DNA of 64,000 nucleotides from a virus. Its lineage: Duplodnaviria; Caudoviricetes. Of this stretch, positions 3,970 through 52,258 are shown in pieces. The DNA lies in IMG/VR virus record IMGVR_UViG_3300021387_003827, positions 64,001-128,000 of that record; one strand, given 5' to 3'. Both the position numbers and the translations under genes were made by a program. The notes beneath the pieces are model-generated. The model ran no database searches. It was given only the letters and a program-made list of their open reading frames with translations, and had not been told where the DNA came from. Position 1 is the stretch's first letter, and each line of letters begins with the position of its first letter.

Positions 3970-4544
3970 TTAATCCAGTATTTTATGTCGGGAGAATAAA
4001 AGAAGTTATAGACCCGAAAATATATATAGTCTCCGTAGAAGTTCCAGGTATCTTCGAGGAACTTAAAGCATTCCCAAGAAAGGGGCAACTAGATGAACCT
4101 AAACCTGGTGATCCCGTTGTACTTCTTGGCCTTGATCCTCTCTATAATTCCTACTATCTATGGGAAGGACTTAAAGAAACTGAATTTAGAGGAATACGTG
4201 TGGCTGGAAAAGAAATTACCTGGGACGAAGATAAGATAATGATTGGTGTATATAGTGGAGAAAACGAAGAGGATGGTAGTGAGGTTGATCCAGATAAAGC
4301 AATGATAACCCTAGATAAAGATGGGAACATAAAAATCAATGCTACGGCTGATGTTAATATAGAAGTCCAAGGAACAACCACACTGAAATCTACAAAAACT
4401 ATAATAAAGGGTCCGGGAAAACTTACAATCGAAAACGGTACAGTAATTCCAGATCCTTCCGGTGGACCATTTGTAGCAACTAAAGTAACACCGCCTCAAG
4501 GATCTCCGCTACCATCTGGAAATTCAATAATACTTGGAGGATAA
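3966..4544 (+). CDS. baseplate central spike (gp5/gpV-like OB fold plus beta-helix)
   Basis: N-terminal VGRIKEVIDP..V.V..PG..P..GD.V OB-fold pattern, then short beta-strand repeats (ITLDKDGNIKINATADVNIEV). Confidence 0.6.
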   Translation: MINPVFYVGRIKEVIDPKIYIVSVEVPGIFEELKAFPRKGQLDEPKPGDPVVLLGLDPLYNSYYLWEGLKETEFRGIRVAGKEITWDEDKIMIGVYSGENEEDGSEVDPDKAMITLDKDGNIKINATADVNIEVQGTTTLKSTKTIIKGPGKLTIENGTVIPDPSGGPFVATKVTPPQGSPLPSGNSIILGG

Positions 4545-4547
4545 GAT

Positions 4548-5270
4548 ATGGGACTAATAGATGGACTAAAGGAAGCCGTACTTAAAGAAATAGCGGACAA
4601 TCTCTTACCTTCGGTGGATATAAAAGATAAGTTTAGGGATTGGGATTCACTTTCCCCAGAACTTAAAGATGAATTTCTGGAGGACGAAGAGACAATAAAC
4701 TCAAACATAGAAGATCAAAAGGAACAGGTTATAAAAGGAATGGAACCGAAATGGAATAACCTGTCGTCCTCTTTAAATCTTCTTGTAAATTCTTCAACAC
4801 AATTTGTAACAAGGCTGGCAATGGTTCCTACGGCAATTATATCAACAACTCCCGTAGGTCCTGGTGTAGCGGCTGGAGCAATACCACAGGCAATAGCACA
4901 ATTAAAAAGTGATGGAGAGACTGTTGGAAAAGCTTATGATGATACTAAAAACTCTCTCTCTGAAATTCTTGGAGGTTATAGTGGGGATAGTACGATTATA
5001 ACCGACCTTAAGACCACCATAAGTACTCTCCTTGGAACTGCAGCAATAGCCTTAGCGGTTGTAGGAATTTCGAAGGATGGAGTTGAAGCACAGGAGCCAG
5101 AAGTACAAAGTCCTGTTGCTCTTCCTGAATACAAGGCCGGCGATTGTAAAAATTACCGGGAGATAGAACAGGAAGATCCGGTAGAATGTGAAAATTGTGA
5201 AAACTATAATGCTTTAAATCCTTCAGGGACGCGGGCATGTAATAATTGTACCCGCTATGAAAAAAGATAG
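4548..5270 (+). CDS. hypothetical virion-module protein with Cys-rich C-terminus
   Basis: 240-aa ORF ending C..Y/CENC/CNNC. Confidence 0.6.
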   Translation: MGLIDGLKEAVLKEIADNLLPSVDIKDKFRDWDSLSPELKDEFLEDEETINSNIEDQKEQVIKGMEPKWNNLSSSLNLLVNSSTQFVTRLAMVPTAIISTTPVGPGVAAGAIPQAIAQLKSDGETVGKAYDDTKNSLSEILGGYSGDSTIITDLKTTISTLLGTAAIALAVVGISKDGVEAQEPEVQSPVALPEYKAGDCKNYREIEQEDPVECENCENYNALNPSGTRACNNCTRYEKR

Positions 5271-5800
5271 TGGGATGGCTTATGGAGAGTGAAATTTCCA
5301 TAGGTCTCAAGTTGAAAACGCAGAGACTTGGGAGACGAAATCAAGATGAAACCCGAAGAAAAGCTGAGCGTTAGCGAAGTCTTTTCGAGTGGTTGAATAT
5401 TGATGAGTATCCTTAGGTAAAACAAAATCGAACCCCACCTCCATTTCATTCCGGTGGGCTCCGTTAAAGAAAAGAAATTGTGTGAAAGATATATAAATTA
5501 TTTTAAGAACAGCTGGCCCGAACCACAACTAACCCCGGAACGGAACGTTAGTGGAGTGGAGGGGTGTATGTTGGGGTGAAGGGGCCAGGTGTAATAAAAA
5601 ATAGTGACTTTACTTATATAAAGGTAATTTTTGTGGGTGTCAAAAAAAATTGTGACTTTTTTGGTTATTTTTGGACATTTTCGCAGAAAATGGACAAAAA
5701 TGTTAGAAAAACACCCAATTTTGCAGATAAATTTAATAGTATTCCTTATATATAGTAGAGGATGCTTCGCCTCCCAAGTGTGAAGCATCCTGAGATAAAA
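5271..5800. other. long structured non-coding region (multiple hairpins, A/T tracts); candidate replication origin or element end
   Basis: Hairpins at 5340-5404, 5434-5458, 5513-5588, 5668-5700 and 5759-5791, with GTTA/GNA loops and GA/GGA internal loops. No credible ORF. Confidence 0.6.
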
Positions 5801-5823
5801 TATTATTAAATTTATTATAATGT

Positions 5824-7842
5824 ATGATTAAATCTACAATTAATGTACCTAGAGGAATTAGATACATTAGCGAATGGCAAAATTTTAATATACCAGAAAA
5901 AATTTGCATCTTAAACAAAACTCTTACTGGATGTGGTTTCACCGAGTGGGTAATAACTAGTAATGAAAATGTAGTTTTATGTTCTCCCCGTAAAATCCTC
6001 CTAGAAAACAAAGAAGAACAACATCCTGAAGTATTCTATTTTAAGAATGAATTAGATTATGACATAAGAGTTGACAAGGATCTCACAAAAGAGTACTATA
6101 AGAAATACGATCAAATTCCTACTCCTCCAGCCGATGCACAAGAAAGGTTGGAAAATATGAAACAAGGCCTGAAGAATTATTGTTATTCTAGGATGATGAA
6201 GGGCCTACCAATAAAGATCCTTGTTACCTACGACTCCTTCAGAATTGTAAAGGAAGTGCTTAAGACTTCGTTACCAGATGTATATTTTAACATCTATATC
6301 GACGAGTTCCAGAGTATTTTCACGGACTCACGCTTTAAATCATCTACGGAAATTGTCTTTTTATCTCATCTTCAAGGCCTGGATAAAGTATGTTTTGTAT
6401 CCGCCACACCAATGATAGATAAATACCTGGAGATGTTGGATGAATTTAAAGATCTCCCATACTTTGAACTTGACTGGGGAGCGGAGGAACAATCTAGAAT
6501 CATAAAGCCGAATCTTGAGATTAAGGCCATCAATGGATCAATAACTTCCTATGTAAAAGCTATTACGGATAAATATTTGTCAGGAAATTTTGACAAGGCA
6601 ACATATAGAGATGAATCCGGAAGGATAGTTGAAATAGAGTCCAAAGAAGCTGTTATCTATGTAAATTCGGTAAAGAATATTTGTGATATAATCCGAAAAT
6701 GTGGGTTAAATATAAATAATACTAACGTTCTCTGTGCTAGAACCCCTGAAAATGAAAAGGATATAAAGAAAGCATTTGGACTTAAGGGGAAAGGCGTATC
6801 AGGAATAGGAAAAGTGCCGCTGAGGGGAGAACCTAGAAAAATGTTTACCCTTTGTACTAGGACCGTCTATCTTGGAGCTGACTTTTATTCCCCATGTGCC
6901 CAGAGTTTCATATTCTCTGATGCTAATATAGACTGTCTTTCGGTTGATATTACTACAGACCTTCCTCAGATTTTGGGACGACAAAGATTAGAAAGTAATC
7001 CTTGGAAAAATTCTGCCAGGTTATATTATAAGACTTTGGCAACAGATAAAGCTATAACTCAAGATGACTTCAACAATCACATTCAAAAGAAAGTTAGTGA
7101 TACAAATGATCTTCTGTCCCTCTATAATAGATCTGTAGGTAGTGAAAAATCTACTTTAGCTGAAAGATGTTTACACCTGGTTAAGAGTATGAATTATAGG
7201 TTAGATTATTTGGCCGTCAATGAAAGGGCTGGAAATGTTTTGGTTCCTGTCTTTAATAACCTTGTCCTTGTTTCAGAGCTTAGAACTTTCGAAATACAAC
7301 AGATAGAATATAAGGATAGATTCTCGGTTTTCAGTACAATAGTGAATAATGATCTTCTTGTTTTTGAAGAGAAGATAGACTCATTTGTAACTAAGTTTAA
7401 TTCTCTCATCCTATTTACTGATAAGATGAAGTATGTTTGTGATACATGTGAAGTATTAGGCGAAGATGAGGCTGACAGGTTTATTAATTCTATTCCATTG
7501 ATATATAAGAATTATTATCTAACTTTAGGACCTGAACGAATAAAAACATTCTCGTATCGAAAGGCATATCTTGAGGCTGAATATAGCAAACAATTTCAGC
7601 AGCAGAATACTATAACTGATCTTGATACTTTGATCTATTCTAGAATATCAATTGGAGATAGATATAGCAACCAAGAGCTTAAAGAATTGCTTAGGTCTTT
7701 ATATGAAATTGCTTCTTATCCTGCCAATCCAAAAGCTAGCGATATAGAAAAATGGTTTGAGATAAGGCCTTGTCAAATTACTAATAAAACGACAGGAAAG
7801 AAGGACCATGGCTTTGAAATTATAAAAAAGAAAGACAAATGA
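5824..7842 (+). CDS. SF2 helicase-like protein with altered Walker A and C-terminal putative DNA-binding domain
   Basis: Motifs in order: TGCGFT (I, K replaced by F), SPRK (Ia), IDEFQ (II), SATP (III), IYVNS (IV), TRTVYLGADF (V), QILGRQR (VI). Confidence 0.75.
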   Translation: MIKSTINVPRGIRYISEWQNFNIPEKICILNKTLTGCGFTEWVITSNENVVLCSPRKILLENKEEQHPEVFYFKNELDYDIRVDKDLTKEYYKKYDQIPTPPADAQERLENMKQGLKNYCYSRMMKGLPIKILVTYDSFRIVKEVLKTSLPDVYFNIYIDEFQSIFTDSRFKSSTEIVFLSHLQGLDKVCFVSATPMIDKYLEMLDEFKDLPYFELDWGAEEQSRIIKPNLEIKAINGSITSYVKAITDKYLSGNFDKATYRDESGRIVEIESKEAVIYVNSVKNICDIIRKCGLNINNTNVLCARTPENEKDIKKAFGLKGKGVSGIGKVPLRGEPRKMFTLCTRTVYLGADFYSPCAQSFIFSDANIDCLSVDITTDLPQILGRQRLESNPWKNSARLYYKTLATDKAITQDDFNNHIQKKVSDTNDLLSLYNRSVGSEKSTLAERCLHLVKSMNYRLDYLAVNERAGNVLVPVFNNLVLVSELRTFEIQQIEYKDRFSVFSTIVNNDLLVFEEKIDSFVTKFNSLILFTDKMKYVCDTCEVLGEDEADRFINSIPLIYKNYYLTLGPERIKTFSYRKAYLEAEYSKQFQQQNTITDLDTLIYSRISIGDRYSNQELKELLRSLYEIASYPANPKASDIEKWFEIRPCQITNKTTGKKDHGFEIIKKKDK

Positions 7843-8840
7843 TCTACCTTATTGAAGTAACGTATTATATCAAGGAAACCGGAGGAATTTTAGATCTTCT
7901 TAAAATTGGATTTACAGATAATAGTTCTAGAAGAATGTTAGCTTATAAATACCATAACCCTGGATTTAAACAGCTAGGGAAAATAGAAGACGGAACATTA
8001 CAAGACGAGACCAATCTACACTATCATTTCAGGAAGTATAAGTATCCTGATTTTGGAAATGAATGGTTTTTATATAATGATGAAATTGTCGAATTCTTTA
8101 AGACTCATAAAACATCTGAGTCTTTATACTACGACATAGATATAGAGCCAGAGGTAGATAAGAGGTATAGAGGGGACATACTTCAGGAGGGGATTAGGTT
8201 ATTAAATCGTGCCTATAATATTTTGGGTGTCGAGTTTAATGTTAATATTGACGAAGATATTTATAAGAAAGCTCAGGATTATTTAAGCCGGGTTCCCAAA
8301 GATATCAAGGAATTAAAGAAATTCATTGAAGAAGATTATAATATTACTTTCTCGGAGGAAGATTTTATATTAGACGATAGATTACAAAATATTATCAATG
8401 AATTTAACTCATTTCCTCAGTTTACAGATAAGATGAAGTATTTGTGTGATCTTTCTGAAGATCCTGAATTTGATAAGATCCTAGACTCTGTTCCGATATT
8501 ATACAAGAGCTACTATATTATCTTAGGACCTGAACGAATAAAAACATACTCATATAGGAGAGCTTATCTTGAGGCTGAGTATAATGTAAAGATTGGCAAA
8601 GAATGTACAATAGATGAGCTTACTTGCCTAGTTTATTCTACGATAGAGGTGGGGAAAAGATATAGTAACCAGGAACTTAAAGAGGCATTAAGATCTCTAT
8701 ATGAATCCATCTCTTATCCCGCTAATCCTAAAGCAACTGATATAGAAAAGTGGTTTGAAGTAAGGACCTGTCGAATTATTAATAAAGAAACAGGAAAGCG
8801 GGATTATGGATTCAAGATATTAAGAAAGAAAGATTTATGA
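7839..8840 (+). CDS. T5orf172/GIY-YIG-like nuclease domain protein whose C-terminal domain is paralogous to that of the upstream helicase
   Basis: IYLI..LLKIGFT..RR..Y...NP...E..LH..F...GNEWF pattern. The last ~145 aa align with the helicase C-terminus. Confidence 0.65.
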   Translation: MIYLIEVTYYIKETGGILDLLKIGFTDNSSRRMLAYKYHNPGFKQLGKIEDGTLQDETNLHYHFRKYKYPDFGNEWFLYNDEIVEFFKTHKTSESLYYDIDIEPEVDKRYRGDILQEGIRLLNRAYNILGVEFNVNIDEDIYKKAQDYLSRVPKDIKELKKFIEEDYNITFSEEDFILDDRLQNIINEFNSFPQFTDKMKYLCDLSEDPEFDKILDSVPILYKSYYIILGPERIKTYSYRRAYLEAEYNVKIGKECTIDELTCLVYSTIEVGKRYSNQELKEALRSLYESISYPANPKATDIEKWFEVRTCRIINKETGKRDYGFKILRKKDL

Positions 8841-9166
8841 TTTACTTACTGTCGAGCGGAAGAACTACAACACGTCTGGAATATTATGTGCTCGATTTAT
8901 TTAAAATTTACTTAACTGTCTACCCCGATGATATTCCAGGCGCTCCATCGATAGGGTTTGATTATATTATACAGGACACAAGAAAATCAGATCTTGTGGA
9001 TGCTGTAAGAAATAAAGTTTCAGGATTAGTGTCAAAGATATCTTCAAGAATTAATGACAGAGCGGAGATAACTATAGACTCCATTGAAATCCTGGATGAA
9101 ACAAAAGCAAGAATTACCGTAACCATAAATAAATTGGTTACAGATTCTATAGACTACAATTTATGA
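8837..9166 (+). CDS. baseplate wedge/sheath initiator, gp25-like
   Basis: 109 aa with L...P.DIPG.P.IG pattern, preceding a gp6-like gene. Confidence 0.5.
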   Translation: MIYLLSSGRTTTRLEYYVLDLFKIYLTVYPDDIPGAPSIGFDYIIQDTRKSDLVDAVRNKVSGLVSKISSRINDRAEITIDSIEILDETKARITVTINKLVTDSIDYNL

Positions 9167-10614
9167 AAACATTACAAGAATACAAGGATATTTATTCTGG
9201 TATTGCTTCCGAACTTGGAATAAGGGGAGACAGCGTTGAAGTATTGGTCGGATTACTGGCTAATGCTTCTTATATTTCTGAGGTTGAGAATGCTGTGTAT
9301 ATGAGGGAAGCATCATTAGGTAAGGCCACACTCTCTAATTCAAAGATTCAGAAATGTATGGATCAGATGTACTCGGTGTATCGTGGTGCTTGTCCAAGAA
9401 TTATACTTCATGTCAGATTTAAAACCTCTACAACCATTAAAAGATACGATGAAATAGTGTCTTCAAATAATTTCAAGGTATATTTTGATCTGGCCTGGAA
9501 TGGAAATGAGGAGCCGGAAAGTGGAGTACCTCTGTTGGAGAATTTTACCTTAGATATGATTCAACCTTCTCCTATGTCAGATTATTATATCTTAGGGTTT
9601 ATAGCTCCAAAGGTAGAAGAGATATCAGGATTTACATTATCTCCCACCCAGTTCTTTGTATCTACATCTGCCGACCAGGTTAATCTCTCGGCCGACATGT
9701 ATCTGATAGATGATAACTCTAAGGAAAGTATTGACGTAACAAGATCTTTCGGAGAGCATGTAAGAAGTGAGGGGAAGACTGTATTTGATCTTACGACTAC
9801 TTCTTTTGGATCAAGATTATATTTCACCCCTGGAGGAGATTCTAAGACATACACAGCACGATATTTTGTATATTCTCTTCTCTCTGATTATAATCCTGCG
9901 GAGCTTAGGAAAATTAAAATCAAAGATACGGACTCAATTCCTATTTCAGATTCAGATCCTTGGGCTTCTCGAAGAGGTGGTGTGGAAACAGAAAATGGTA
10001 TAGTTTTCATAGATTCCACACAAAGGGATTCTATGGACCAAATTCACTATCTCGCATCAAAGCAAAGATATACAAACCAAGTTATAAGGTCTAATTCGGA
10101 TATTTCAACTGTCCTAAAGAATGATGAAACAATAGGAAAATATATAAAACAGGTGACTTATCGTTTTGAATCGTCCCCTACACAAAGTGTTCTAAGTATA
10201 TATTATGTTCCATCTGAGGAGGGTGAAATTCCTGAAGAGAAAAAGGAAGAGTGGATAGCAGATGATTCTAAGAAGGCATATTTTGTTACTAATGATATAC
10301 GCTTGGAGACTGGAGATGAATACAAAGCTCAATTTAATATAAACCTTGTGATATATCGAGATCAATCGGCTGGTACAATTGGCGAAGATGTGTCAAAGAT
10401 ACTCAGACAATACGAAGATAAATTTGATATTGACTTTGATATCTTAGAAGAAGAAATTAAGGCTCATATATCAAAAATCTCTGCTGTCAAGAGTATTAAA
10501 GATTATTCCGTTCAATATTTTCATTCCGGGGCGCTATCTCCAAAACCAAATATCGGTGCTACAATTCCACCATATTTTGAAATTGAACTTAGATTAAATA
10601 TGATATTGTCATGA
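9163..10614 (+). CDS. baseplate wedge protein, gp6/gpJ-like
   Basis: N-terminal VLVGLLA..SY..E......REASL.KA pattern like gp6; synteny. Confidence 0.55.
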   Translation: MKTLQEYKDIYSGIASELGIRGDSVEVLVGLLANASYISEVENAVYMREASLGKATLSNSKIQKCMDQMYSVYRGACPRIILHVRFKTSTTIKRYDEIVSSNNFKVYFDLAWNGNEEPESGVPLLENFTLDMIQPSPMSDYYILGFIAPKVEEISGFTLSPTQFFVSTSADQVNLSADMYLIDDNSKESIDVTRSFGEHVRSEGKTVFDLTTTSFGSRLYFTPGGDSKTYTARYFVYSLLSDYNPAELRKIKIKDTDSIPISDSDPWASRRGGVETENGIVFIDSTQRDSMDQIHYLASKQRYTNQVIRSNSDISTVLKNDETIGKYIKQVTYRFESSPTQSVLSIYYVPSEEGEIPEEKKEEWIADDSKKAYFVTNDIRLETGDEYKAQFNINLVIYRDQSAGTIGEDVSKILRQYEDKFDIDFDILEEEIKAHISKISAVKSIKDYSVQYFHSGALSPKPNIGATIPPYFEIELRLNMILS

Positions 10615-11126
10615 TAAAGATATATGTACCCAAGCATCTTAGAAATCTTGAGATAGTAGATCAGATGTGTAGGATGATAGATGAATATGTTTCTAGGGGA
10701 GATCAAGATAGTGGGGAAGATAGTTTTAGTGATTATAATTCATATCTCTCCTCTGATCCCGTTCTAGAATTTATTGACTATATATATCCAGAGTCTGATA
10801 ACAGGGAAGATGAGATTATGTATCTGACTAATTATTTTTACTGTCTTAAGGGAACTCGTGAGGTTATAGATTCTATGTCTAAATATCTCCCACTTGAAGT
10901 AGAGGGTACATATTCGGTATCATCTCTTACATTAAGAATAGTTCCCTCAGGCATTACTGTAGATCAGACACGATTTAGGGAGCTTCTTAATGAGTTTCTT
11001 AGAAGTCTTTTATACTTTGGTGAAATTCAATCTGAGGCTGCATCTGTTCCATTAGATATAGACAGCACTATTGAAAAGGTAGTATATGTTTATGAGTTAA
11101 CAAGTTGGAAAGAATATAAATTATGA
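10611..11126 (+). CDS. putative baseplate wedge protein (gp7/gpI-like)
   Basis: FY.LKGT motif; follows the gp6-like gene. Confidence 0.45.
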   Translation: MIKIYVPKHLRNLEIVDQMCRMIDEYVSRGDQDSGEDSFSDYNSYLSSDPVLEFIDYIYPESDNREDEIMYLTNYFYCLKGTREVIDSMSKYLPLEVEGTYSVSSLTLRIVPSGITVDQTRFRELLNEFLRSLLYFGEIQSEAASVPLDIDSTIEKVVYVYELTSWKEYKL

Positions 11127-12721
11127 CGATTACTGAATTTGGTAATTATAATAGTATACGTAAAATTGAATTCTATGATTCAAATTCTGCCTGGCTGTCT
11201 ACTCAATTCTACTGTGGAACTCTAGATTCTGGCCTTATTGATTTCATAGAATACAAGTATATATATCATCCGGAAAGAGGTGATATATTAAACAAAATTG
11301 ATCTTCCATCACTTCTTCCACAAAATAGCAGTGATATAGAAAATTTTGATATTCCAGAAGAAGAGGCAGAGAAATTGAATTATATATTTCCAACGGAGTC
11401 TTCAGGAAATATTGACTATAATTTATTCTTTGGTTCTATAGATAAAGTCGAGCAGAAATTATATATCATTAGGGTTTCCGGAAAAGTAAAAATAATGAAA
11501 CTCTATAATGAGAGGCTTGAACATTTCGGAACCATAGAGTTTTCTCCTTTTAGTGATAGAGATGGATATTTTTCCTCACGACTTCTTCTTATAATTCAAA
11601 CTCCGACAGAACTTAGTGTTGAGAATCTTGGATATGACTTATGGATATATCGATCTTTAGATTCAGAGCAAAATAAAAAGAATTATGATGTTGCAATGAA
11701 TGATCTTGGCCCTGAATCTATTCTCTATAATCCAAAGAACACAGATATTATGTTTGATGCCACTTCTGATACTCTTCTTGGACTTAGGAAATCAACATCA
11801 TCTCCAATTCTTGATATGAAAAAGGTTCTATATATGAAGAGTACGTGGAAGCCTTGGTTTGTATATAAGAAAGGGGAGAAAGTAGAGTATAATGGAGAGG
11901 AGTGGATTTCATTAGATGACAATAATAACGAGACTCCAGATTATTCTTCTAAGTGGGTTTTATCATCTAGGGCAGGGAATCCATTAAATTATAGAATTCT
12001 TGTATCTACTTCTCCATATAATGCATCCAAAGTTGAACCATCCGGATATATAACCATGGAGCAAGGAGAAAAAGTAAGAATAGAAGTATCAGAGTATACA
12101 GCATATATATTCTCAGGACTATATTCTGCCGGACAAAAATTAACAGAGGGTGTGGATTATGTTTCTGGTATTGAGGAAAAGAGTGGAAATAGATATTATA
12201 TTGTAAATACTCCTCCCTCCGCCAATCTTATATTTAAGTATACAGAGAATCCAGACATTCATGTTACAAGAGAGTATACCGTAATAAAAAATGATGTGGC
12301 AGAATCATATACAACATCCCACGATATAGAAGTTCCAAGAGAATATTCTGTATCTAGAATATTGGCAGTATATACTCTTCCAGATGATTCAGAGAGAGAA
12401 GAAAATATAAATACGTCAGAACCAGTACGATATCTAGACGAATATGATCCAGGGTTTGCATATATTTCTGTAAGCATGAGAATTGTCCTTACCGGTAAAG
12501 TATGTACTGTTATACTTGAAACGCCTGACGAATTTATAGTAGATGCTCCCATACAATATATACAATATGGTGGAGATGTTACATTCAGATTATATTCTCA
12601 TACCGGAAGAGTGCCACAACTTCAATCTACCTTAGCTACATTGAGTGGACCAGATTCTGAGGGAATATATACGGTCTCTGCTACAAGAATAATGAATGAC
12701 TTAACTATTAAGGTTGTATAA
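11123..12721 (+). CDS. virion protein with carbohydrate-binding (ChtBD3/CBM5-12-like) motif
   Basis: WKPWFVYKKGEKVEYNGEEW...TPDYSSKW motif. Confidence 0.5.
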   Translation: MTITEFGNYNSIRKIEFYDSNSAWLSTQFYCGTLDSGLIDFIEYKYIYHPERGDILNKIDLPSLLPQNSSDIENFDIPEEEAEKLNYIFPTESSGNIDYNLFFGSIDKVEQKLYIIRVSGKVKIMKLYNERLEHFGTIEFSPFSDRDGYFSSRLLLIIQTPTELSVENLGYDLWIYRSLDSEQNKKNYDVAMNDLGPESILYNPKNTDIMFDATSDTLLGLRKSTSSPILDMKKVLYMKSTWKPWFVYKKGEKVEYNGEEWISLDDNNNETPDYSSKWVLSSRAGNPLNYRILVSTSPYNASKVEPSGYITMEQGEKVRIEVSEYTAYIFSGLYSAGQKLTEGVDYVSGIEEKSGNRYYIVNTPPSANLIFKYTENPDIHVTREYTVIKNDVAESYTTSHDIEVPREYSVSRILAVYTLPDDSEREENINTSEPVRYLDEYDPGFAYISVSMRIVLTGKVCTVILETPDEFIVDAPIQYIQYGGDVTFRLYSHTGRVPQLQSTLATLSGPDSEGIYTVSATRIMNDLTIKVV

Positions 12722-12723
12722 AT

Positions 12724-13653
12724 ATGAAAATCAATAATACAAGTGTCCAGGGAATATTTAAATATAACCCTTCCTTGGAATATGAAACCGGAGACTTTGT
12801 TATCCTCGAAGACAATACATTATGGGTAGCTAAGAAGGATGTTCCAGTCGGTGGTGATAAAGATGAGTACTTCGAACCATACCTTTCATCTAAAGTCTTG
12901 ACTATGGAAGAATATCAGGATGAGGAGAAAGATGGATTTATGAGTGCAGCCCTAGCGTATGAAGTTCTTGAATCAATGATGTTTGGGGTTACAACAACTG
13001 GTCTTAGTAATCCGCTGGAGTATAATCATCTATCTCCAGACGAACTTATGACTAGGAAAAATATAAACAACGCTATTGTTCATTTTCCAAGATCTACGTT
13101 TAAAAGTATTCTCTCAGAACAGGAGGGAAGTGATATTTTCATTCATCAGTATGCTTATAAGGTGGCATCTACGGGGAATACTATTAAAGTACAAGTAATG
13201 ATTGATCCGGAAGAGAGGACGATTCGACTTAGATCATATCTTGATAATCAAATAACTCCATGGACAGCATCATTAACCTCCACAACAAAAGAATTGGCAG
13301 AGATGGTAGAGGCTATTCAAACCTATTATACGGCCAGAGTGGAGGAACTTGATAATATTGTCAGGAGGTTTGATGATTATATATTACTTCAGAAGATTAA
13401 TGCCTCTGGTGTGGGGACTGGACAAGTAACTGGGACATTTAACGGTGACTACTATATAATGTTAACGTATACACCAGAAGGATCCTCAGTCTCAGAACAG
13501 TATAGCTTAGTTGTTGATACCTCATATATTCAGTCAAATCCGCTTTATATTCAAACCGGACCACTTCTTGTAAAAATAACTACCTCTTCAATAATGGTTT
13601 CTGGTCCGGCAACGGGTTCTTCGATTATATCGGGGGTATATTCAATTAATTAG
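12724..13653 (+). CDS. hypothetical virion protein
   Basis: 309 aa; N-terminal YNPSLEYETGDFV CBM-like motif. Confidence 0.55.
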   Translation: MKINNTSVQGIFKYNPSLEYETGDFVILEDNTLWVAKKDVPVGGDKDEYFEPYLSSKVLTMEEYQDEEKDGFMSAALAYEVLESMMFGVTTTGLSNPLEYNHLSPDELMTRKNINNAIVHFPRSTFKSILSEQEGSDIFIHQYAYKVASTGNTIKVQVMIDPEERTIRLRSYLDNQITPWTASLTSTTKELAEMVEAIQTYYTARVEELDNIVRRFDDYILLQKINASGVGTGQVTGTFNGDYYIMLTYTPEGSSVSEQYSLVVDTSYIQSNPLYIQTGPLLVKITTSSIMVSGPATGSSIISGVYSIN

Positions 13654-14429: not shown

Positions 14430-15840
14430 CGTATCTCAGGGATATTATACTTATATCCTTGGAACAGTAGAAGAAATAAACCAGTGTCTTAGGATTGCAG
14501 TATATAATCGGAGAGCGTTTGACCAGATATCACTATACAATATAAACGAAATATATAATAGTCTGGGGGATGCTAAAATAGAATTAACCAGGAATGATAT
14601 ATCGTCTCCCTTCGAATATATAATTGGTGACCTAGAAAGTGGATTTAATGTTATAATATATCTTTCCGAGTATTCAATTCCTCTAGGATATACTGAATTT
14701 TATAGTGATCAAGGCACTGAATTTAGCGTAAATATTACTATAGGGCTACAGGATACTATTTCTGTTCAAGATAATGTTACTATAAATTTAGATCTTTCAA
14801 AGTACCTGCGGGGAACTGGAGATACATATAGACAATTTACCGGAAAGACTTTTAAAAGTATTTCAGACATTCTTGAAGAAAAGATTAAGAAAGACTTTAT
14901 TTATACGTCGGATCTTACAAATCATAAAAATATAATATATCAGGGTATAAGATCTAGTATAAATAATGAACTTTATGGTCTATATATAACAAGAGATGTA
15001 GATATAGATCCTAAGAAAATTGGATATAATAACTATAACTTTGGATTTAAGGGAAATGATATTGTTCTTTATTCTTGGACTTCTGAGGGGAAATATAGGG
15101 CTACTTCATTAACTAAGAATGATATTTTCGGTAATCCTCTACAATATTCTGCCGGAGAGTATACAGGAGATATTCAATATATGTCCGGTAGATATATCAT
15201 TGGGAACGACAGAATTTATAATTATCTGACGAAAGAGGAGACCTTGGGAGAATATATAATTGACCAACAGGATTGGACAGGAAAGGTAATCAAACATCCC
15301 GACTCTCTTGAATCTTATGAAGAAGTTATAGTAGATATTCCAGATCTTAAGAATATCTATATAGATCTTAAAACATTTATGAGCTATCAAACATTAAAAA
15401 TACATAGAAAAATTGGATCTTGGTGGATTTTAGAGCATACAGAAAGAGGTAGAAAAGCTTATGCAGTGACCGATTCTCGTGCCCTGATTTATATGACAAA
15501 AGAGGAAGTTTCTAATCTCTTTGTTATAAACTCAGGATCACTTCTTGTTAAAAATCAAGATACGTATAATTTATATATGATAGATAGCCCAGGATATTAT
15601 ATAACAGAATCTACAAAAAAATATATGAAAAATTCAAGTGGTTCATGGCAGCTTCCAAAGTACGTAAAATCTAAAAGCTTGCTCCAAGATCCATTTGAAA
15701 TAAAAGTTGGTGATGATCTATATAAGACTATGTTGTTTAATTATAGAATCGGACCGTATATAAACACAGTTCCTAATTTTATAGGCTCGATGTGTGGAGT
15801 ATTATTTTATAAAGAGGGTGATAATTTATTCTACTTATGA
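14416..15840 (+). CDS. hypothetical protein
   Basis: 474-aa ORF overlapping its neighbours. Confidence 0.65.
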   Translation: MEENNVSQGYYTYILGTVEEINQCLRIAVYNRRAFDQISLYNINEIYNSLGDAKIELTRNDISSPFEYIIGDLESGFNVIIYLSEYSIPLGYTEFYSDQGTEFSVNITIGLQDTISVQDNVTINLDLSKYLRGTGDTYRQFTGKTFKSISDILEEKIKKDFIYTSDLTNHKNIIYQGIRSSINNELYGLYITRDVDIDPKKIGYNNYNFGFKGNDIVLYSWTSEGKYRATSLTKNDIFGNPLQYSAGEYTGDIQYMSGRYIIGNDRIYNYLTKEETLGEYIIDQQDWTGKVIKHPDSLESYEEVIVDIPDLKNIYIDLKTFMSYQTLKIHRKIGSWWILEHTERGRKAYAVTDSRALIYMTKEEVSNLFVINSGSLLVKNQDTYNLYMIDSPGYYITESTKKYMKNSSGSWQLPKYVKSKSLLQDPFEIKVGDDLYKTMLFNYRIGPYINTVPNFIGSMCGVLFYKEGDNLFYL

Positions 15841-18800
15841 TATCAGTAAATCTTTTAAAAGAAAATGAGCTCTTAGAGGTAGACGACGTTATTACTCTAA
15901 GAAGCTATAATACCGAAACTGGGGTAAGTAAAAAACCTTTATCCGGGGTTTGGAATGGTGAGAAAAAAGAATTAACCTTGTGTATTCATGGATCTGTAAC
16001 TCCTGTTGAGGATACAAAATGGATAAAAATCTATGATACAAAAGACGAAGAGTTTTTAAGAATAGAGAGTTCAGAAAATATAAATCTTGTCAATATTAAT
16101 CTTTTTACTATAACGCTCGGAACTGGAAAAGGGAGAATAGAATTTGAAAATGAATCGGAGAATAAGAAATTTCTAGAGGACTTTGGAACTGCTCTTGGAG
16201 ACAACTTATATATTCCCTATGATAATCCTGAATCCCACTTGGCCCTGAAGAAACCAGCCTATAGATACTACAGAATTGAAAGTGTGTCTTCTCCGGAAAT
16301 GACTCTTGGATTTAAGCACTTAGATCCACGTACCGGAGAAGTGAAAGATCAATATATTTTACGAACATACTCAAATCTTGAAATAACTTGTGAAGGAGCG
16401 GAAGGTGATATTAGATTAGGACTTCCGATAGAGGGTGGAGTTATAGATATTCAAGGAACTGCAGAATATACAGATTATCTTATCATAGATGGTAAGATAA
16501 AAAATGTTGTTGGAACAGGGATTCTTAGTATATCCGAAATTCCTTCTTTTAGAATTTCCGAGGTATCTAATAATGGATTTAGATATAAGACCCACGGGAC
16601 AAGATTGGAATATTTATTTCCAGAGGATGGAATAAAGAGGCCCGTTCTTGTTATCCGAGGTACTGTGATGTATGAAGACATAAATGGAGACCCTATCACA
16701 GTTTCTTCTGATACTATGACCTTGTATCAAACTAAGGCTATCTCAATGTGGGAAATAAGAAATTCTACGACGGATTTCTATAATAGTTCTGAGACGACCT
16801 ATAATGAGGAGAGTAGCTATGTTAAGGATGGGTTGCGTGTGTATATTTTCCAATGGGATTCTTACTCAAATAATGATACCCACTCCTTTGATATATGTAT
16901 AAATCTTCAGCCTAAAACTCCAAAGATAACTTATAGTATTGATTCAAGGTATGGTTCTTCAGAATCCGCCGAAGATATATTCAATGAGTGGTTTAAAGTT
17001 GAATGTGGAGAGTGGGAAGATCCAGAAGGACAGAGACATTTCGAACTCCCTGTTACAATTACCGCACGGAAAAATTGGACAGGAGATACTAAACCATATT
17101 GGGCACCGTATTATAATGATAAAGGTCTTCTTGTCAAGGTTTCAATTGAGATAGAAGATATTGGTACGGAATCCTTCTATGTAATTATGTCTCCAAACCC
17201 TAATGTAACATATTCATCAACTTGGTATGCAAAAGATAATAAATTCTATACCAGTAATCCAACTACAATAACCGCCGAGCTTAGTGAAACAGTACAGTTA
17301 GAAGACGTATCAGAGTATTATGTGGGAATCACTGGGTCTACGCAGAAATATTCATACTGGAGAGTTTTATCAGCGGCCGGAGATACAGATTATTCGGTTA
17401 AGAATGACTACAATGAATATGCTTGGGGAAGTATTCCAGGTACTCAACCTCCATTTAGTGTGGGTGAAAAAATAAATCTTCTTCACTTGATCTGGGGAAA
17501 TGAAACTGGTATTAAGGATTATAAGATTATACTTGGTTTATATACAGATGTACAAGAAGCTAATCATGTTAAATATTATCACCCTGAGACATACAGCTGT
17601 ACACATTGGGATCTTATTGGCTCTACACCAACGCAGAGAATAACAATACAGAAAAGATTTGAAAATAGTATAGTTGAAGTAAAATCCTATGACTCTTCTT
17701 ATATGGATTATGGAAGAGGCGGTATAATAGCTTCGTCAGGTAGGTTTGATTTTGGTGAGGTAGGACTAAGACACATCACTTTTTCTACTAATACAGACTT
17801 TATTCTATCGGCAGAAGTTGCATCTGACATAGATACTACATATGATGGAAATGATTTCCAATATATGAAGGATAGGATTGAGTTTGTTTATATAGATCCA
17901 GTAACGGGAGAAGAATCAAGTGAAGTAACTTTAACAGAGGAAGAAAAGTCTAGTCTTTCTCCAGAAAATCCGACCGTAGATAAAGTAGTTACTGTAAGGT
18001 TTAAGTATAATTTATCTGCAAGATTTCCCAAAAGTGATTATTGGGACGAAAGTCCAGAAGTATATTATAAAAAATTTGGTTGGCTTTATATAAAAACAGA
18101 GTTATCTGGAACTTGGAATACTTTTAAGAAATTTGATCTCTGGTGGAAATGGATAAAACCAGAATATAGAATAGTTAATGGAGATGGGTTTATGAGAATC
18201 TATGGCACATCTTTCTCCAGGGAAACCGAGTTTTCCGGCTACACTCCTGGTGGTGGTACTTCATATGTAACTGCAAGGAATAACCATAATGATGAAATTA
18301 GATTTTATTCAAATGTAACTCCAAAGATTATTTATGTAGATAAATCTCCCGAAGGGTATCCAGAAGGAAATTTTGTACAGGGAGTTCTTAAGATAGAAAA
18401 CTTAAGAAGTTCGGATAAGTCTTTATACTCATACTCAGATTATTCAGTAAACTATAATTATTCATATTCAACTGCTTCTGTTCCTACAGCTATTCAAAAC
18501 TTTAAAGATGCATTCCCAAAAATTGTGGCCGGTCTTAGTCCAATTCCAATAACTGCCTTTGGATCTGTTCGTTTCTTATCAATGTGGGGTAGAGATGGTA
18601 CGGACTTCATATCAAATTATCTCTATGTTGTACCAAAACCCATAGAATTTATAATACACGATGAAGTTAGTACTCACATGGAATCCGGAAAGATAGTAGC
18701 GTATCTTGGCATCGCCAGTGGATATCCGGGAGGGGAAACTGGTATTTGGGCAGAATATGGTAAGAGCGACTTTGAAGTTCTTGAGTCAATGATAGATGAT

Positions 18801-20642
18801 CAAACAGGAGGTATAGAACTCGTAGATAGTGTACGATATAATGGTATTACTAATGGTATAGAGCCAGAGTTTGTGGCTTCTGAAGACAGAAATTATTATG
18901 CTAAAGTATCGTATAATCTTCATGGAATAAAGAAGGATGGAGTAAATAAATTAACAACCGACAATGGAACGCCAGAATTTTTATCTCAGGATCAACTTGA
19001 TGACCTGACTGGTTCTTCTTCTGGTATTTTCTACATATATCCTCCAAAGCGTCCCTTAGATATATATACAAATGATTATGGTGGAAACTATACTATCTTA
19101 AGTCCAGGAGAATTTACGTATATTGTCCAACCAAAAGTAGCGTTAAACATGGTTGGGTATACGTGGAGATATCCCATGACTGAAACTGGAACCGTGGTGG
19201 GATTTGGTGATTATACTTATGAGAATTTTCAACTTCAATGTAATACGCCGCCACATGAGAACGTGTTTAGTGTAGGTCCTGCCACGATTGTAACTCCTTT
19301 TGGACAAATTTCTGGAGATTATGGTCTTGGTCCTCTTGATCCGGATAGTGAAGTCTTAGATACCTTTAAGTATGAGTATGATGATCCAGATTCGAAAGGG
19401 TCTGCTAAAGCTGTGATTTCCGCCGAGCTTAATTATGTTTATCATGACCCTCATGGTTGGGATACAGAGGTTTCTGGTACTGCGACGGGTATATATAGAA
19501 TACCTCATATTTATGATTCATTACAGGTAACCTCCTCAAGCATACTTATACCAACTGGTGTATATCTTGGAAATATAGATACCACCACGGGGAGAAATGT
19601 TGTTACTGTCAATGTTCCAGCGACGGATTATAGGTGTAGTATTACTGTTTCTAATCTTCTCTTAGATCAGGGATATAGAAAGGATACTCCTATGTATCCA
19701 TATATGACTTCTGATTATGAAGGAACTATTATCCAGAGACCTACCGAAAATAATTTTGTAGTTAATTTTGGCCTTAATACAACGACCCAGGAAAGAGTAA
19801 TTAATCTTCTGATCAAGTCTTATTATCAAGAATCTCTAGGGTATGGTTCTGAATTATTGATAAAGATAGTACAAGCCCCAGGTGGGAATATAGAGGATAG
19901 ATATAAATTCCTCTCCACTGGCCACTTTTATGATACTACAAACGACGATATTGTACAAGAATTGTCTATAAATGTAGACCCCGTTGATTTTCCTGGAACA
20001 GAGGCAATTGTAGATCTTGACGGAAATAGTCTTAGAAACTCCATTAGTACTGTCGGATCTGTAGCAACTCTTACGATATATGATATGAAAGTGGAGGAAA
20101 ATATGTCTGCTTCGCCTAGAAATCATACCCTTACTATTCAAGGATCTTCAGACGAACCAATCATAATTAACTTAGAACAAGGATATTTCTCCGTTGGTGT
20201 TGTAGAAGGAACATCTCTTGATAATGGTACTTTCAATATATTATCTTCGGATGACTACCATTTTAATACCAGAGAAGTAGATGCCAGATCTAGTAATGAG
20301 GATCGTCTCGTATATCTCATAGGATTTAAGTGGAATGATGCTAAAGGATCAAGAGAGGGAGTGTTTTCAGATCGTTCTTTATGGGAGGTATCACATTCTT
20401 GGTGGAGCATAACCCCTGAGGATAGTCTTTATAATTATGAAACATTAGTTATAAAAGATGATACTACTTATGAAGATCCAGGCATAGAGAATATATATAC
20501 AGCAAAAGAAGATTTTATATCTCAAAATATTGATTTTTATGTAAATACTTGGCTCAGTATTAGATGGCCATATCTAATTGATGGTTCTGTATTGAGTGTA
20601 AATAAAAACCTAAACTTTAGTTATATTAAGAAGAATGGATGA
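15837..20642 (+). CDS. large beta-rich virion protein with Ig-like/BACON-like segments
   Basis: 1601 aa. Segments such as NTTTQERVINLLIK..IKIVQ and NMSASPRNHTLTIQ..INLEQ resemble BACON domain ends. Confidence 0.55.
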   Translation: MISVNLLKENELLEVDDVITLRSYNTETGVSKKPLSGVWNGEKKELTLCIHGSVTPVEDTKWIKIYDTKDEEFLRIESSENINLVNINLFTITLGTGKGRIEFENESENKKFLEDFGTALGDNLYIPYDNPESHLALKKPAYRYYRIESVSSPEMTLGFKHLDPRTGEVKDQYILRTYSNLEITCEGAEGDIRLGLPIEGGVIDIQGTAEYTDYLIIDGKIKNVVGTGILSISEIPSFRISEVSNNGFRYKTHGTRLEYLFPEDGIKRPVLVIRGTVMYEDINGDPITVSSDTMTLYQTKAISMWEIRNSTTDFYNSSETTYNEESSYVKDGLRVYIFQWDSYSNNDTHSFDICINLQPKTPKITYSIDSRYGSSESAEDIFNEWFKVECGEWEDPEGQRHFELPVTITARKNWTGDTKPYWAPYYNDKGLLVKVSIEIEDIGTESFYVIMSPNPNVTYSSTWYAKDNKFYTSNPTTITAELSETVQLEDVSEYYVGITGSTQKYSYWRVLSAAGDTDYSVKNDYNEYAWGSIPGTQPPFSVGEKINLLHLIWGNETGIKDYKIILGLYTDVQEANHVKYYHPETYSCTHWDLIGSTPTQRITIQKRFENSIVEVKSYDSSYMDYGRGGIIASSGRFDFGEVGLRHITFSTNTDFILSAEVASDIDTTYDGNDFQYMKDRIEFVYIDPVTGEESSEVTLTEEEKSSLSPENPTVDKVVTVRFKYNLSARFPKSDYWDESPEVYYKKFGWLYIKTELSGTWNTFKKFDLWWKWIKPEYRIVNGDGFMRIYGTSFSRETEFSGYTPGGGTSYVTARNNHNDEIRFYSNVTPKIIYVDKSPEGYPEGNFVQGVLKIENLRSSDKSLYSYSDYSVNYNYSYSTASVPTAIQNFKDAFPKIVAGLSPIPITAFGSVRFLSMWGRDGTDFISNYLYVVPKPIEFIIHDEVSTHMESGKIVAYLGIASGYPGGETGIWAEYGKSDFEVLESMIDDQTGGIELVDSVRYNGITNGIEPEFVASEDRNYYAKVSYNLHGIKKDGVNKLTTDNGTPEFLSQDQLDDLTGSSSGIFYIYPPKRPLDIYTNDYGGNYTILSPGEFTYIVQPKVALNMVGYTWRYPMTETGTVVGFGDYTYENFQLQCNTPPHENVFSVGPATIVTPFGQISGDYGLGPLDPDSEVLDTFKYEYDDPDSKGSAKAVISAELNYVYHDPHGWDTEVSGTATGIYRIPHIYDSLQVTSSSILIPTGVYLGNIDTTTGRNVVTVNVPATDYRCSITVSNLLLDQGYRKDTPMYPYMTSDYEGTIIQRPTENNFVVNFGLNTTTQERVINLLIKSYYQESLGYGSELLIKIVQAPGGNIEDRYKFLSTGHFYDTTNDDIVQELSINVDPVDFPGTEAIVDLDGNSLRNSISTVGSVATLTIYDMKVEENMSASPRNHTLTIQGSSDEPIIINLEQGYFSVGVVEGTSLDNGTFNILSSDDYHFNTREVDARSSNEDRLVYLIGFKWNDAKGSREGVFSDRSLWEVSHSWWSITPEDSLYNYETLVIKDDTTYEDPGIENIYTAKEDFISQNIDFYVNTWLSIRWPYLIDGSVLSVNKNLNFSYIKKNG

Positions 20643-21339
20643 GAATAAGATAACATTTATTGATAAGATATCCGATATCATTATCAAGATAGATCAATCC
20701 GTCGGCTTCAAAAATCTTCTTAGGTATGTTGTTCTCATATTGGTGTTGTTTGGAATATTTAATTTCAAAGCAATTGTCAAAGGGGGTATAGAGCTCGTCC
20801 AGGAAATTTCGGATGAGCTACATACTGAAAGATTAGAAAGACGTGATGAATTATTAAAGGACCTAGCACCTATCCTTCAAGAATATCGAGCGGCTACCGG
20901 AGCGGATAGGATATTATATTTTGAATATCATAACTCTAAGGAAAACTTAGTTGGTATTCCATTCAAGTATCTTGATCTGGTATTGCAAAACTCTCGGTAT
21001 GGGATTAGTCTTGTTTCAGAGTCCAGGTTCAAGGATGTAAATATTGGAATTATTAGCCCAATTTATGAAGGAATTAAGACGGGCGACGTAATCTATAGGA
21101 TGAACATGGAAGACGAATCTTTCCATTTTAAATACCCAGGAACATATGAGCTCTTTGACTCTGACGTATCTCAAGCCTTTATATCAATCCCCGGTATAAC
21201 CCAACCCGTCGGAATGATTATCTTAGAGTGGAAAAGAGATATGAATGAAGAAGACGTTCGCTGGGTAGAAGAATATTCATACGGACACAGTGGATACATC
21301 TCAAGAATAAATGGACTAATAATGTCTATGAGCTATTGA
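20635..21339 (+). CDS. putative holin, T4 gpT-like (one TM helix plus soluble GAF-like domain)
   Basis: Single hydrophobic helix (YVVLILVLFGIF) followed by GADRILYFEYHN. Confidence 0.55.
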   Translation: MDENKITFIDKISDIIIKIDQSVGFKNLLRYVVLILVLFGIFNFKAIVKGGIELVQEISDELHTERLERRDELLKDLAPILQEYRAATGADRILYFEYHNSKENLVGIPFKYLDLVLQNSRYGISLVSESRFKDVNIGIISPIYEGIKTGDVIYRMNMEDESFHFKYPGTYELFDSDVSQAFISIPGITQPVGMIILEWKRDMNEEDVRWVEEYSYGHSGYISRINGLIMSMSY

Positions 21340-21396
21340 TAATTGGGGTATGAGAAATATAAAACTTGTACCCCAAAAATATAAAGAAGTTAATTT

Positions 21397-27233: not shown

Positions 27234-27245
27234 TATTAATTTATA

Positions 27246-52100: not shown

Positions 52101-52258
52101 TCAATATAATATGAGGCAGGCTGAACCGGATCGTCTGCTATGTGCCATTTAAGGCTTGTCAATTTAGCCTTAGGATTATATATATCAGTTGCATTAAAGA
52201 ATCTATTTACTATTATATCTGCTCCTTGATTTTTAAAATATTCGTTAAAACTACTCAT
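49106..52258 (-). CDS. rpoB: phage multisubunit RNA polymerase beta subunit
   Basis: SMLKQSIPL, NEDALVVS, GSKVTNRYGGKGVVS, VMNPYS and GQKIGEMEL motifs. Confidence 0.92.
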   Translation of the reverse strand: MSSFNEYFKNQGADIIVNRFFNATDIYNPKAKLTSLKWHIADDPVQPASYYIENELTAVFRVILDYTINDDPTIYQSYFEVPREIDGAFILEGAYRINTNRMGSDYDCRIKMSGTGEHIVNFDFMRRYDIKKGVLKMKDQDNPFATRWKTEIPFDKIDSYPDREALKLTEYQSKKFQIKLDLNYVPEYITQQLIQECLAFGDDRLKDLIIDKTVESVPVAFMQYLFRSNNKKNYYSARKRITSYWTKNSKLQDEIRPISTLAFRFFKGDNNSKGDSNLQIASGVNAINLQSVGSKIVIPETVAFNNTFSDLIDIVDTPINQNTNLQNALTVSTRITDEGVMFKVMTKDWAVVEIPYIDYLNSKVCASEYLDYNTNTIKPDDKGQVEVKYRMKRIMVPVEEVELLDLHPDYRLSETTRRIPFINYTDSVRMSMGTSMLKQSIPLVHAQRPLVDTGNSMELDDNILNERFNYPEGKVKDITEDKVIIELPDKSEVDVLRRTAIQSINDVSVYTQPKVKKGQTVKKGDIITGAVGLGDNTYKAGLNTLVLFHAEFGLVNEDALVVSESYANRMAHYSIIDLTFNVKNSAALKWVVPIGTRVKSGDSIVTFFKAVRLDEINKALNDKLGGLFGEQGKDLTEYTVEGSMKVPNNIDEAYVSDVIFQEMKNPTIPKSVKKPDYSFSRQSEHVISEYESTKDRKIIYDKFPEYIASDRLDPIIMDSKDYKVVYTVRIRLIKKTILMVGSKVTNRYGGKGVVSKVFPDELMPIMVEKGTGKQYRVEVVMNPYSTINRKIAGVLLEQSLGNIAHKLYDLVDEYRKTKTGQKKIMPLLEKYYPGRYTKMDVEDFIKLHETKPIEEVYYFNVGCFSDFTPAKVQGWMEDLGLESQSEILMPSIQVTDMDELKENLSEEEYDKIVKNLQGKYTKVDKPLQVGWMTLEELYHIPSYSNKVTTSLYGVDISPRKDEPILGKGRYRTTGQKIGEMELSVLLARNAKDYINEARNESAKEQNQLFLNNLLGLGMAVKNDAGYNQGGSSLKSDLNKMKTKFRLKNQK

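Follow-up and report, generated by a model that had tools for sequence, protein, structure and literature searches.

A repeated spacer-helicase unit in large phage genomes: a candidate replication origin with its own initiator, invaded by a nuclease gene

Why should two neighbouring genes of quite different kinds end in the same domain? The question is raised by a locus in the genome of a virus of the class Caudoviricetes (IMG/VR record IMGVR_UViG_3300021387_003827), where a hairpin-rich non-coding spacer is followed by P0001, a gene for a protein resembling superfamily 2 (SF2) helicases, and by P0002, a putative nuclease gene. The window, as we call the whole stretch of DNA analysed here, is 64,000 nucleotides long and comprises bases 64,001-128,000 of the 182,986-bp record. 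A preliminary description, made from the DNA letters and their translations, had placed the locus inside a structural operon and had read the shared ending as a sign of shared function. The explanation at which we arrive has two layers, and we regard it as fairly probable: the spacer and the helicase gene would form an origin/initiator unit, and this unit would have been invaded by a homing nuclease.

A multi-copy, evenly spaced spacer-helicase unit

The spacer and the helicase-like gene are the conserved core of the locus, and this core is present in several evenly spaced copies per genome. A structured spacer of 400-630 bp lies upstream of the helicase-like gene at every homologous locus examined. 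A search for further copies, which the preliminary description had recommended, brings up two more paralogues in this record, both with the same tail and each behind a GC-rich, hairpin-rich spacer of 400-580 bp. The gaps for these three copies are 64, 49 and 70 kb (evenness p = 0.027). Three other long records were compared in the same way: G001, a 184-kb relative, has three copies (p = 0.16); G002, which is complete at 400,901 bp, has six, with gaps of 56-87 kb (p = 4.6e-4); and G003, a 367-kb relative, has seven, with gaps of 38-66 kb (p = 7.5e-5). Over the four records the combined p-value against random placement is 3e-7, the gaps span 33-87 kb with a coefficient of variation of 0.15-0.36, and copy number scales with genome size.

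The helicase-like proteins belong to a large family without a name, numbering more than 4,600 proteins at E <= 1e-3 (1,594 clusters at 50% identity). Its members are almost all viral and come from contigs, some as long as ~400 kb, of rumen/gut metagenomes. Some homologues are longer (937-967 aa); they retain both core and tail and add a BT4734-like_N domain of AEP (archaeo-eukaryotic primase) type, with PriCT_1 also present in one of four; the longer contigs that carry these primase fusions show phage gene contexts.

P0001 itself has no match in Pfam or PHROGs, and a profile search of PDB sequences returned no hit. The AlphaFold model (51 relatives; predicted local distance difference test, pLDDT, 85.6; predicted template modelling score, pTM, 0.78) has two RecA-like domains at residues 3-511, and this part matches SF2 helicases with Z 16-18, in line with the earlier description of the gene. 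The listed matches include Prp2, eIF4A, DbpA, BLM and WRN (Z 15-18), with structural alignments of 300-358 residues at a root-mean-square deviation of ~4.2. In 51 sequences, motifs II, III and VI (D160-E161-F-Q163, S193-A-T-P196 and Q382-I-L-G385-R-Q-R388) show little or no variation, the strictly invariant positions being K32, D160, E161, S193, P196, Q382, G385, R386, Q387 and R388. Motif I reads TGCG[F/Y]T throughout the family and lacks the catalytic lysine of GxGK[ST]; the invariant K32 lies seven residues upstream of the position where that lysine is expected. The 'degenerate' Walker A motif, TGCGFT without lysine, is a trait conserved in the family and no sign of decay, so the gene is a conserved variant and not a decayed one.

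The place that the cassette occupies is also conserved. In five of the five related contigs with a homologue of the 483-aa downstream gene, a helicase cassette lies between the same two flanking genes, with the same orientation in L095, L097 and L099 and inverted in L015 and L016; the accessory genes beside it vary among the five. None of these contigs has the flanking genes adjacent and no cassette. In a tree of the helicases, which has long branches, the gene in the window groups with those of L015, L016 and L021, and those of L095 and L097 group with copy 3 of this genome. The genes that share the site do not form one clade, and paralogues also expand within lineages. Because the cassette is found in all five contigs and its lineages are mixed, we take the site to be old and conserved and its occupant to have been exchanged. 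Of the earlier suggestion that a selfish unit had entered a structural operon, the involvement of a selfish nuclease can be retained; a recent insertion of the cassette cannot be squared with its presence in all five contigs.

In the window, the spacer between the upstream gene and P0001 is 553 bp long, as against the ~550 bp of hairpin-rich non-coding DNA first described, and its predicted fold is far more stable than that of shuffled sequences on the plus strand (-168 kcal/mol, z -7.5) and also on the minus strand (-132.6 kcal/mol, z -5.7). It contains numerous inverted repeats and, as ORFs (open reading frames), short antisense ones only; scans of the region against Rfam (E <= 1) and for tRNA/tmRNA genes gave no match. 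The GC-richer half holds most of the hairpins listed in Table 1. The AT-rich half (GC 0.28) holds a direct repeat, two promoter-like motifs and a leader hairpin, and a comparable hairpin is found in the same place at most homologous loci. The two copies of the 24-nt repeat bracket the promoter-like motif at 5610-5623, and in L014, a relative with 97% identity, both have undergone a parallel change of base; the repeats are candidate sites for protein binding.

The promoter-like motif, (T-rich)yCTTATAnnTG, precedes many genes throughout the genome, on both strands and in most cases at a distance of 12-13 nt from the ATG; it is probably the site that the RNA polymerase of the phage itself recognises. 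Given this distribution and the RNA polymerase subunits that the phage encodes, the last ~80 nt of the spacer can be regarded as an ordinary phage promoter and leader. Examples of the motif lie at window positions 44193, 48075 and 62499, with ~25 more in the whole genome, and it is similar to the late promoter of T4, TATAAATA.

The spacers of 39 non-redundant loci fold on average 19 kcal/mol better than shuffles. An alignment of spacers across lineages gave 37% column identity and is not usable as an alignment, so covariation can be read within the ~370-kb clade only. The spacers of that clade contain hairpins and the nested inverted repeats TGGTTCTT...AAGAACCA and AGGTTCAC...GTGAACCT, and seven pairs have been kept through compensatory double changes. 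When the right arm is made into a covariance model, the left arm scores 49 bits against it on the opposite strand (arms of ~87 nt); since one model fits opposite strands, the element of this clade is a dyad at the level of DNA, arranged around an AT-rich centre. The covariance model R1, built from the same element, finds its own clade only and has no match in the window or at 30 other loci. The motif AAAGAGATATnAGG is confined to helicase spacers, and is present in those of copies 2 and 3 of this genome and also in those of a distant clade. Within one genome, the spacers of paralogues have been homogenised. A search for universal iterons found direct repeats in 17 of 43 spacers, compared with 19% of shuffles, and a layout of an A-tract plus a word, ~49 nt apart, is common to just four loci in the same set.

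The nuclease gene and the source of the shared tail

The two ORFs lie exactly as the preliminary description had them, the ATG of P0002 overlapping the stop codon of P0001 (ATGA, 7839-7842). Residues 11-85 of P0002 match MUG113 (23.4 bits, cut-off 22.3) and T5orf172 (22.5 bits, cut-off 20), slightly above the Pfam cut-offs (families PF10544 and PF13455), which upholds the first assignment of the gene; its relatives bear the same labels. The GIY-YIG-type residues Y3, K22-I23-G24, R32, Y36 and E75 are invariant in 46 relatives, and P0002 is a putative GIY-YIG/T5orf172 nuclease. The domain that it has in common with P0001 is real: residues 512-671 of P0001 and 176-332 of P0002 are 58% identical (E 1e-62), and 67% identical at the nucleotide level. 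Its length is ~160 aa rather than the ~145 aa first given. In the model of P0002 (pLDDT 88), the last ~70 residues follow the order helix-strand-helix-helix-strand-strand, as in a winged helix; a Foldseek search with the whole two-domain model found nothing below E 0.1.

All 31 T5orf172 genes that bear this tail lie directly 3' of a helicase gene. The converse does not hold: the nuclease is present in about a third of cassettes (one of three in this record, three of six in G002 and one of seven in G003). Thus, of the three parts that had been expected to occur together, only the spacer and the helicase do.

The origin of the duplication can be seen where sampling is dense. In the well-sampled clade, the tail of the nuclease is 83-100% identical to the tail of a helicase allele without a nuclease partner in nine of 12 distinct nucleases (70-74% in the other three), and only 53-77% identical to the tail of its own partner. 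The clearest comparison is between L032, which is invaded, and L042, which is not. In the nucleotide alignment, L032 has an insertion of 1,044 nt exactly at the boundary of helicase core and tail. Identity is 98-100% in the native tail and over 5 kb further downstream, 92-100% in the distal spacer, and only 45-98% (mostly 63-86%) in the helicase core and the promoter-proximal spacer, a stretch that resembles a co-conversion tract. The start of this divergent tract coincides exactly with the 3' end of the structured element, ~195 nt upstream of the ATG, and the tract runs through the whole helicase gene to the native tail. The insert supplies a tail that replaces the native one, then a stop codon and a nuclease head of ~184 aa that is in frame with the native tail. 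The right-hand junction is repeated in the pairs L083/L047, L074/L051 and L052/L053, where the native tail and the downstream DNA are 98-99.5% identical; in the first two pairs the core has clearly diverged further (76-80%). The insertion architecture is therefore shown in four allele pairs of relatives.

By homology, the same insertion probably underlies the cassette in the window. The junctions there (helicase residue 512 and nuclease residue 176) match those of L032 (~509 and ~185), so 7357-8363 would be the inserted element and 8364-8840 the native tail. In the mechanism that we propose, a free-standing T5orf172/GIY-YIG homing-endonuclease gene would invade the helicase gene at the core/tail junction, bringing the helicase a stop codon and, ahead of it, a foreign tail in place of its own, and after these the catalytic head of the nuclease, whose reading frame would continue into the native tail. 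On this account both proteins end in the same domain because the nuclease frame runs into the displaced helicase tail; the shared domain is the footprint of an insertion and not evidence of a shared target.

This answer has to be set against that of the preliminary description, in which the two proteins, one unwinding and one nicking, are directed to the adjacent structured DNA by a DNA-recognition module common to both, the shared domain, the whole being one functional unit. We now consider such a unit quite improbable. The two tails are homologous and both under purifying selection, they end in a winged-helix-like fold, and in sparsely sampled lineages the tail of the nuclease is closest to that of its own partner helicase, which has the look of co-evolution; all this speaks for a common module. 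In the densely sampled clade, however, the nuclease tail matches nuclease-free alleles and not the partner, about two thirds of cassettes manage without the nuclease, and the insertion junctions account for the duplication without any shared target. The claim that the domain aims both enzymes at one site is accordingly unsupported: in the well-sampled relatives, the nuclease tail is the native helicase tail, which an insertion of ~1 kb with a foreign tail has displaced.

The displaced tail has nevertheless probably been put to use. Between the window and L014, the ratio of nonsynonymous to synonymous differences (pN/pS) is 0.005 for the helicase core, 0.08 for the helicase tail and 0.06 for both the head and the tail of the nuclease, with synonymous divergence (pS) of 0.09-0.19 across the cassette. 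From the value for the nuclease tail it follows that the displaced tail is not decaying. P0002 has no other candidate DNA-binding domain, and the captured tail now probably serves it in that role. As a separate observation, pS against L014 is higher in the cassette (5824-8840) than in the downstream genes at 8837-11126 (0.03-0.10), which hints that the history of the cassette differs from that of its flanks.

A more far-reaching possibility is suggested by Odn of phage ICP1, a T5orf172 nuclease that has a copy of the DNA-binding domain of a replication initiator and cuts the origin of that initiator (PMC8263062). By analogy, the native-type tail could bind, and the nuclease cut, the sites of native-type initiators in rival cassettes that lack the nuclease; we think this homing drive improbable, if worth keeping in view. 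Repair would then copy in the new binding sites, the tail-changed helicase and the nuclease from the invaded allele. Besides the Odn precedent, two points are in keeping with such a drive: the exact coincidence of the start of the divergent tract with the 3' end of the structured element, and the parallel changes in the paired 24-nt repeats. The tract is explained equally well, though, by ordinary co-conversion after a cut where the core and the tail of the helicase meet; the helicase tails and promoter-proximal spacers show no specific covariation, and cleavage of the spacer is hypothetical.

Whichever way the nuclease is targeted, the insertion itself has parallels. T4-like phages carry free-standing GIY-YIG homing endonucleases (Seg and Mob), and these resemble the present nuclease in being small genes in or between conserved phage genes, in varying in presence among close relatives and in the co-conversion of flanks. 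The T4 enzymes differ in carrying DNA-binding domains of their own, and we know of no Seg or Mob gene that supplies a replacement end for the invaded gene or is fused to the displaced end. A closer match is offered by the mobile ORFs (mORFs) of fungal mitochondria, which carry a foreign C-terminal copy of the gene that they invade (atp6 in Allomyces; atp6, atp9, cox2 and nad3 in Glomus), giving the order host-gene core, inserted diverged C-terminus, endonuclease ORF and native C-terminus; the native copy is near-identical to that of uninvaded relatives, the inserted copy is far more diverged, and in one case the endonuclease is of the GIY-YIG type (PMC3630166). The phage locus has the same order of parts, with a diverged inserted tail and the native tail downstream. 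It differs in that the host is a phage and the invaded gene helicase-like, in that the native C-terminus is translated as a domain of the nuclease under purifying selection and not left to decay, and in that the whole helicase core has apparently been co-converted as well. Odn, for its part, came about when a homing-endonuclease-like gene and coding sequence of an initiator were combined in a chimera (PMC8263062), and, as here, joins a T5orf172/GIY-YIG nuclease to an initiator-homologous domain, with both the initiator role and the DNA binding putative in our case. Odn is encoded by an enemy of the replicon that it cuts and has an N-terminal, RepA_N-type DNA-binding domain; the nuclease here is encoded in cis, directly 3' of the initiator-like gene, and the shared domain is C-terminal.

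If our account of the insertion is right, the strategy of a mobile ORF with a replacement C-terminus operates in phages as well as in fungal mitochondria, and the recruitment of a displaced host-gene end as a nuclease domain would be a natural route to chimeric, retargeted nucleases such as Odn. For annotation it carries a warning: a domain common to neighbouring genes can be an insertion scar and not a sign of shared function.

What the repeated unit may do

Each spacer-helicase unit may be a replication origin with its own initiator, and we put the chances of this at about even. An origin with an SF2 initiator, conceptually like herpesvirus UL9, had already been proposed for the locus. The proposal is reasonable, and it has been strengthened by the even spacing, the scaling of copy number and the primase fusions, with the UL9-like architecture as a further reason; a specific relation to UL9 was not found. 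In such a unit, the C-terminal domain would bind the structured block next to the helicase gene, and the SF2-fold ATPase would open the DNA or load the replisome, as UL9 does at oriS/oriL. The helicase gene would be expressed from its own phage promoter with a leader hairpin.

Two known arrangements are useful for comparison. Herpesvirus has three origins in 152 kb. The present units are like UL9 and oriS/oriL in combining an SF2 core with a C-terminal DNA-binding domain (putative here) and in having several dyad elements with AT-rich centres per genome; they are unlike them in sequence and fold, where no specific relation is apparent, in the P-loop without lysine, and in that each module has its own paralogous gene whereas one UL9 gene serves all origins. 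Archaeal chromosomes with multiple origins have an orc1/cdc6 gene beside each origin. The likeness here is that of dispersed origins (putative in the phage), each beside its own paralogous initiator gene ending in a winged-helix or winged-helix-like domain; the archaeal initiator is an AAA+ protein in a cell, the candidate here an SF2-fold protein in a phage.

A number of observations weigh against the two-layer explanation, most of them against its origin layer. The origin role is drawn from context, and firing at the units is presumed. GC skew, which had been put forward as a check for an origin, does not mark the cassettes; it goes with the direction of the genes and has its extremes at 32 and 113 kb, and gene orientation does not diverge from the cassettes either. 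In the P-loop the canonical lysine is missing, which leaves the ATPase activity putative. In the Foldseek results for P0001, the herpes simplex virus 1 (HSV-1) origin-binding protein (9hgi_B, UL9) ranks 33rd (E 3e-8), among generic SF2 matches, and the winged-helix call for the tail comes from weak Z values of 4.7-5.9 (RFX and RFX5 DNA-binding domains and the C-terminal region of NrS-1). In a crude test, the pairwise identities of helicase tails and promoter-proximal spacers showed no covariation beyond linkage. The fold of the spacer is slightly better on the sense strand in 30 of 39 loci, and there are G-U pairs in that strand, both of which would suit an RNA. As for the nuclease layer, a nuclease-free allele of the window's own cassette was not found, its only close relative, L014, also carrying the nuclease. 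Lastly, the record may be half of a ~370-kb genome broken at repeated spacers; the spacing of ~50-70 kb stands whether or not it is half a genome, because spacer sequence lies at both ends of the record.

The strand preference and the G-U pairs lead to a different reading, in which the spacer is a structured RNA or a long regulatory leader and the SF2 protein is a transcription or RNA factor that works with the phage's multisubunit RNA polymerase (compare poxvirus VETF or a Rad25-type helicase). It would fit with the RNA polymerase beta- and beta'-like subunits encoded by the phage, with RNA helicases as the best structural matches of P0001 and with a conserved promoter-like motif 5' of the structured part in some spacers. 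We judge it unlikely nonetheless: most of the sense/antisense asymmetry comes from base composition (excess of -2.9 kcal/mol), the element is a dyad at the DNA level that one model matches on both strands, Rfam has no match, relatives carry fusions to primase-type domains, and the gene of a transcription factor has no reason to be evenly spaced. Even spacing (p ~3e-7) is also not what random insertions would produce, and it is a main difficulty for the idea that the whole cassette, spacer and helicase together, is a purely selfish mobile element that multiplies in giant phage genomes without any function for the phage. That idea draws on the lineage-specific expansion of paralogues, on spacers homogenised within genomes, on different helicase lineages at a conserved site, and on the appearance of cassettes as opposite-strand islands, in either orientation at the same site. 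With the family present in all four long records examined and the helicase core under very strong purifying selection (pN/pS 0.005), we find little room for it.

Returning to origins with their own initiators, the start of replication in phage genomes of 200-400 kb is largely unknown, and the spacer/helicase units are concrete candidates for both origin and initiator. At the least, a large, unnamed and almost wholly viral protein family marks evenly spaced non-coding blocks in giant phage genomes. A tentative generalisation, possible in our view but short of probable, is that giant rumen/gut phages have evenly spaced origins, about one per 50-70 kb, each of them a dyad-structured block with a paralogous SF2-fold initiator of its own whose P-loop lacks lysine, and that these modules are turned over by homing nucleases, which swap the DNA-binding tails of the initiators and keep the old tails for targeting. 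If true, this would be multi-origin replication such as has not been described for any phage, with a parasite built into it that rewrites the specificity of the origins.

Coordinates, neighbouring genes and the record

Table 1. Features of the locus and related features (window positions unless marked as genome positions)
Feature	Position	Strand	Remarks
240-aa gene	ends 5270		left neighbour of spacer
Spacer	5271-5823		553 bp, non-coding
GC-richer, hairpin-rich half of spacer	5271-5600	.	GC 0.43, compared with 0.36 for the window
Hairpins	~5340-5404, 5429-5463, 5501-5600		flank AT-rich stretch ~5465-5510
24-nt direct repeat, two copies	5588-5611, 5636-5659	+	88% identical, 48 nt apart
Promoter-like motif copy, yCTTATAnnTG/A type	5742-5755	+	~80 nt upstream of helicase start codon
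Perfect 10-bp stem hairpin	5759-5791	+	presumed 5' leader of helicase mRNA
Helicase-like gene P0001	5824-7842	+	672 aa
Helicase core, residues 1-511	5824-7356	+	K32...TGCGFT, DEFQ, SATP, QILGRQR
Helicase C-terminal domain, residues 512-672	7357-7842	+	helical bundle and winged-helix-like end
Nuclease gene P0002	7839-8840	+	333 aa
Nuclease head, residues 1-175	7839-8363	+	T5orf172/GIY-YIG catalytic domain and helical linker
Nuclease C-terminal domain, residues 176-333	8364-8840	+	putative displaced native helicase tail, read in frame
109-aa gene	starts 8837		right neighbour of P0002
RNA polymerase beta-/beta'-like subunits	49106-52258, 54412-56559	-	~1,050 aa and ~715 aa; Rpb2 domain 6 and Rpb1 domain 2 matches
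Paralogue copy 2	genome 133,899-135,986		695 aa
Paralogue copy 3	genome 180,517-182,565		682 aa

Pfam and PHROGs searches with P0001 and ten flanking proteins gave nothing usable, and the names 'spike' and 'gp25-like' (or baseplate) that the flanking genes had been given are without support from hidden Markov models; their synteny is conserved in relatives. A blastn search with positions 4500-9500 against 50,697 phage records found no match.

CheckV puts the completeness of the record at 49%. Its 88-bp 'direct terminal repeat' sits inside the hairpin-rich spacer of helicase copy 3 (genome 182,566-182,986), and hairpin-rich sequence of a similar kind goes on where the contig starts (genome 1-245). 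Instead of a true genome end, the repeat may mark a place where the assembly broke at a repeated spacer. The record yielded no DnaB_C, DNA_pol_A, DNA_pol_B or Helicase_C, a result that is uninformative, as the phage is too divergent and the record is perhaps half a genome; the latter would explain why no DNA polymerase or DnaB-type helicase was found.

Some further features were noted in passing. At L013:3955-5999, gene calls split the helicase gene beside a nuclease gene into pieces of 101 aa and 478 aa, and this may be a broken copy. An ORF that enters the window from its left edge (2-1444) has a weak match to a glucosaminidase domain (E 1.3e-4, below the cut-off) and may encode a virion-associated cell-wall hydrolase. 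Three very large ORFs (1,601, 1,585 and 2,605 aa) follow the structural block at 15837-35063. Compared with the otherwise ~97%-identical L014, the stretches 12500-13000 and 17250-18750 have 130-180 mismatches per 250 nt, counted without gap correction; indels in large structural genes, or segments swapped there, may be the cause.

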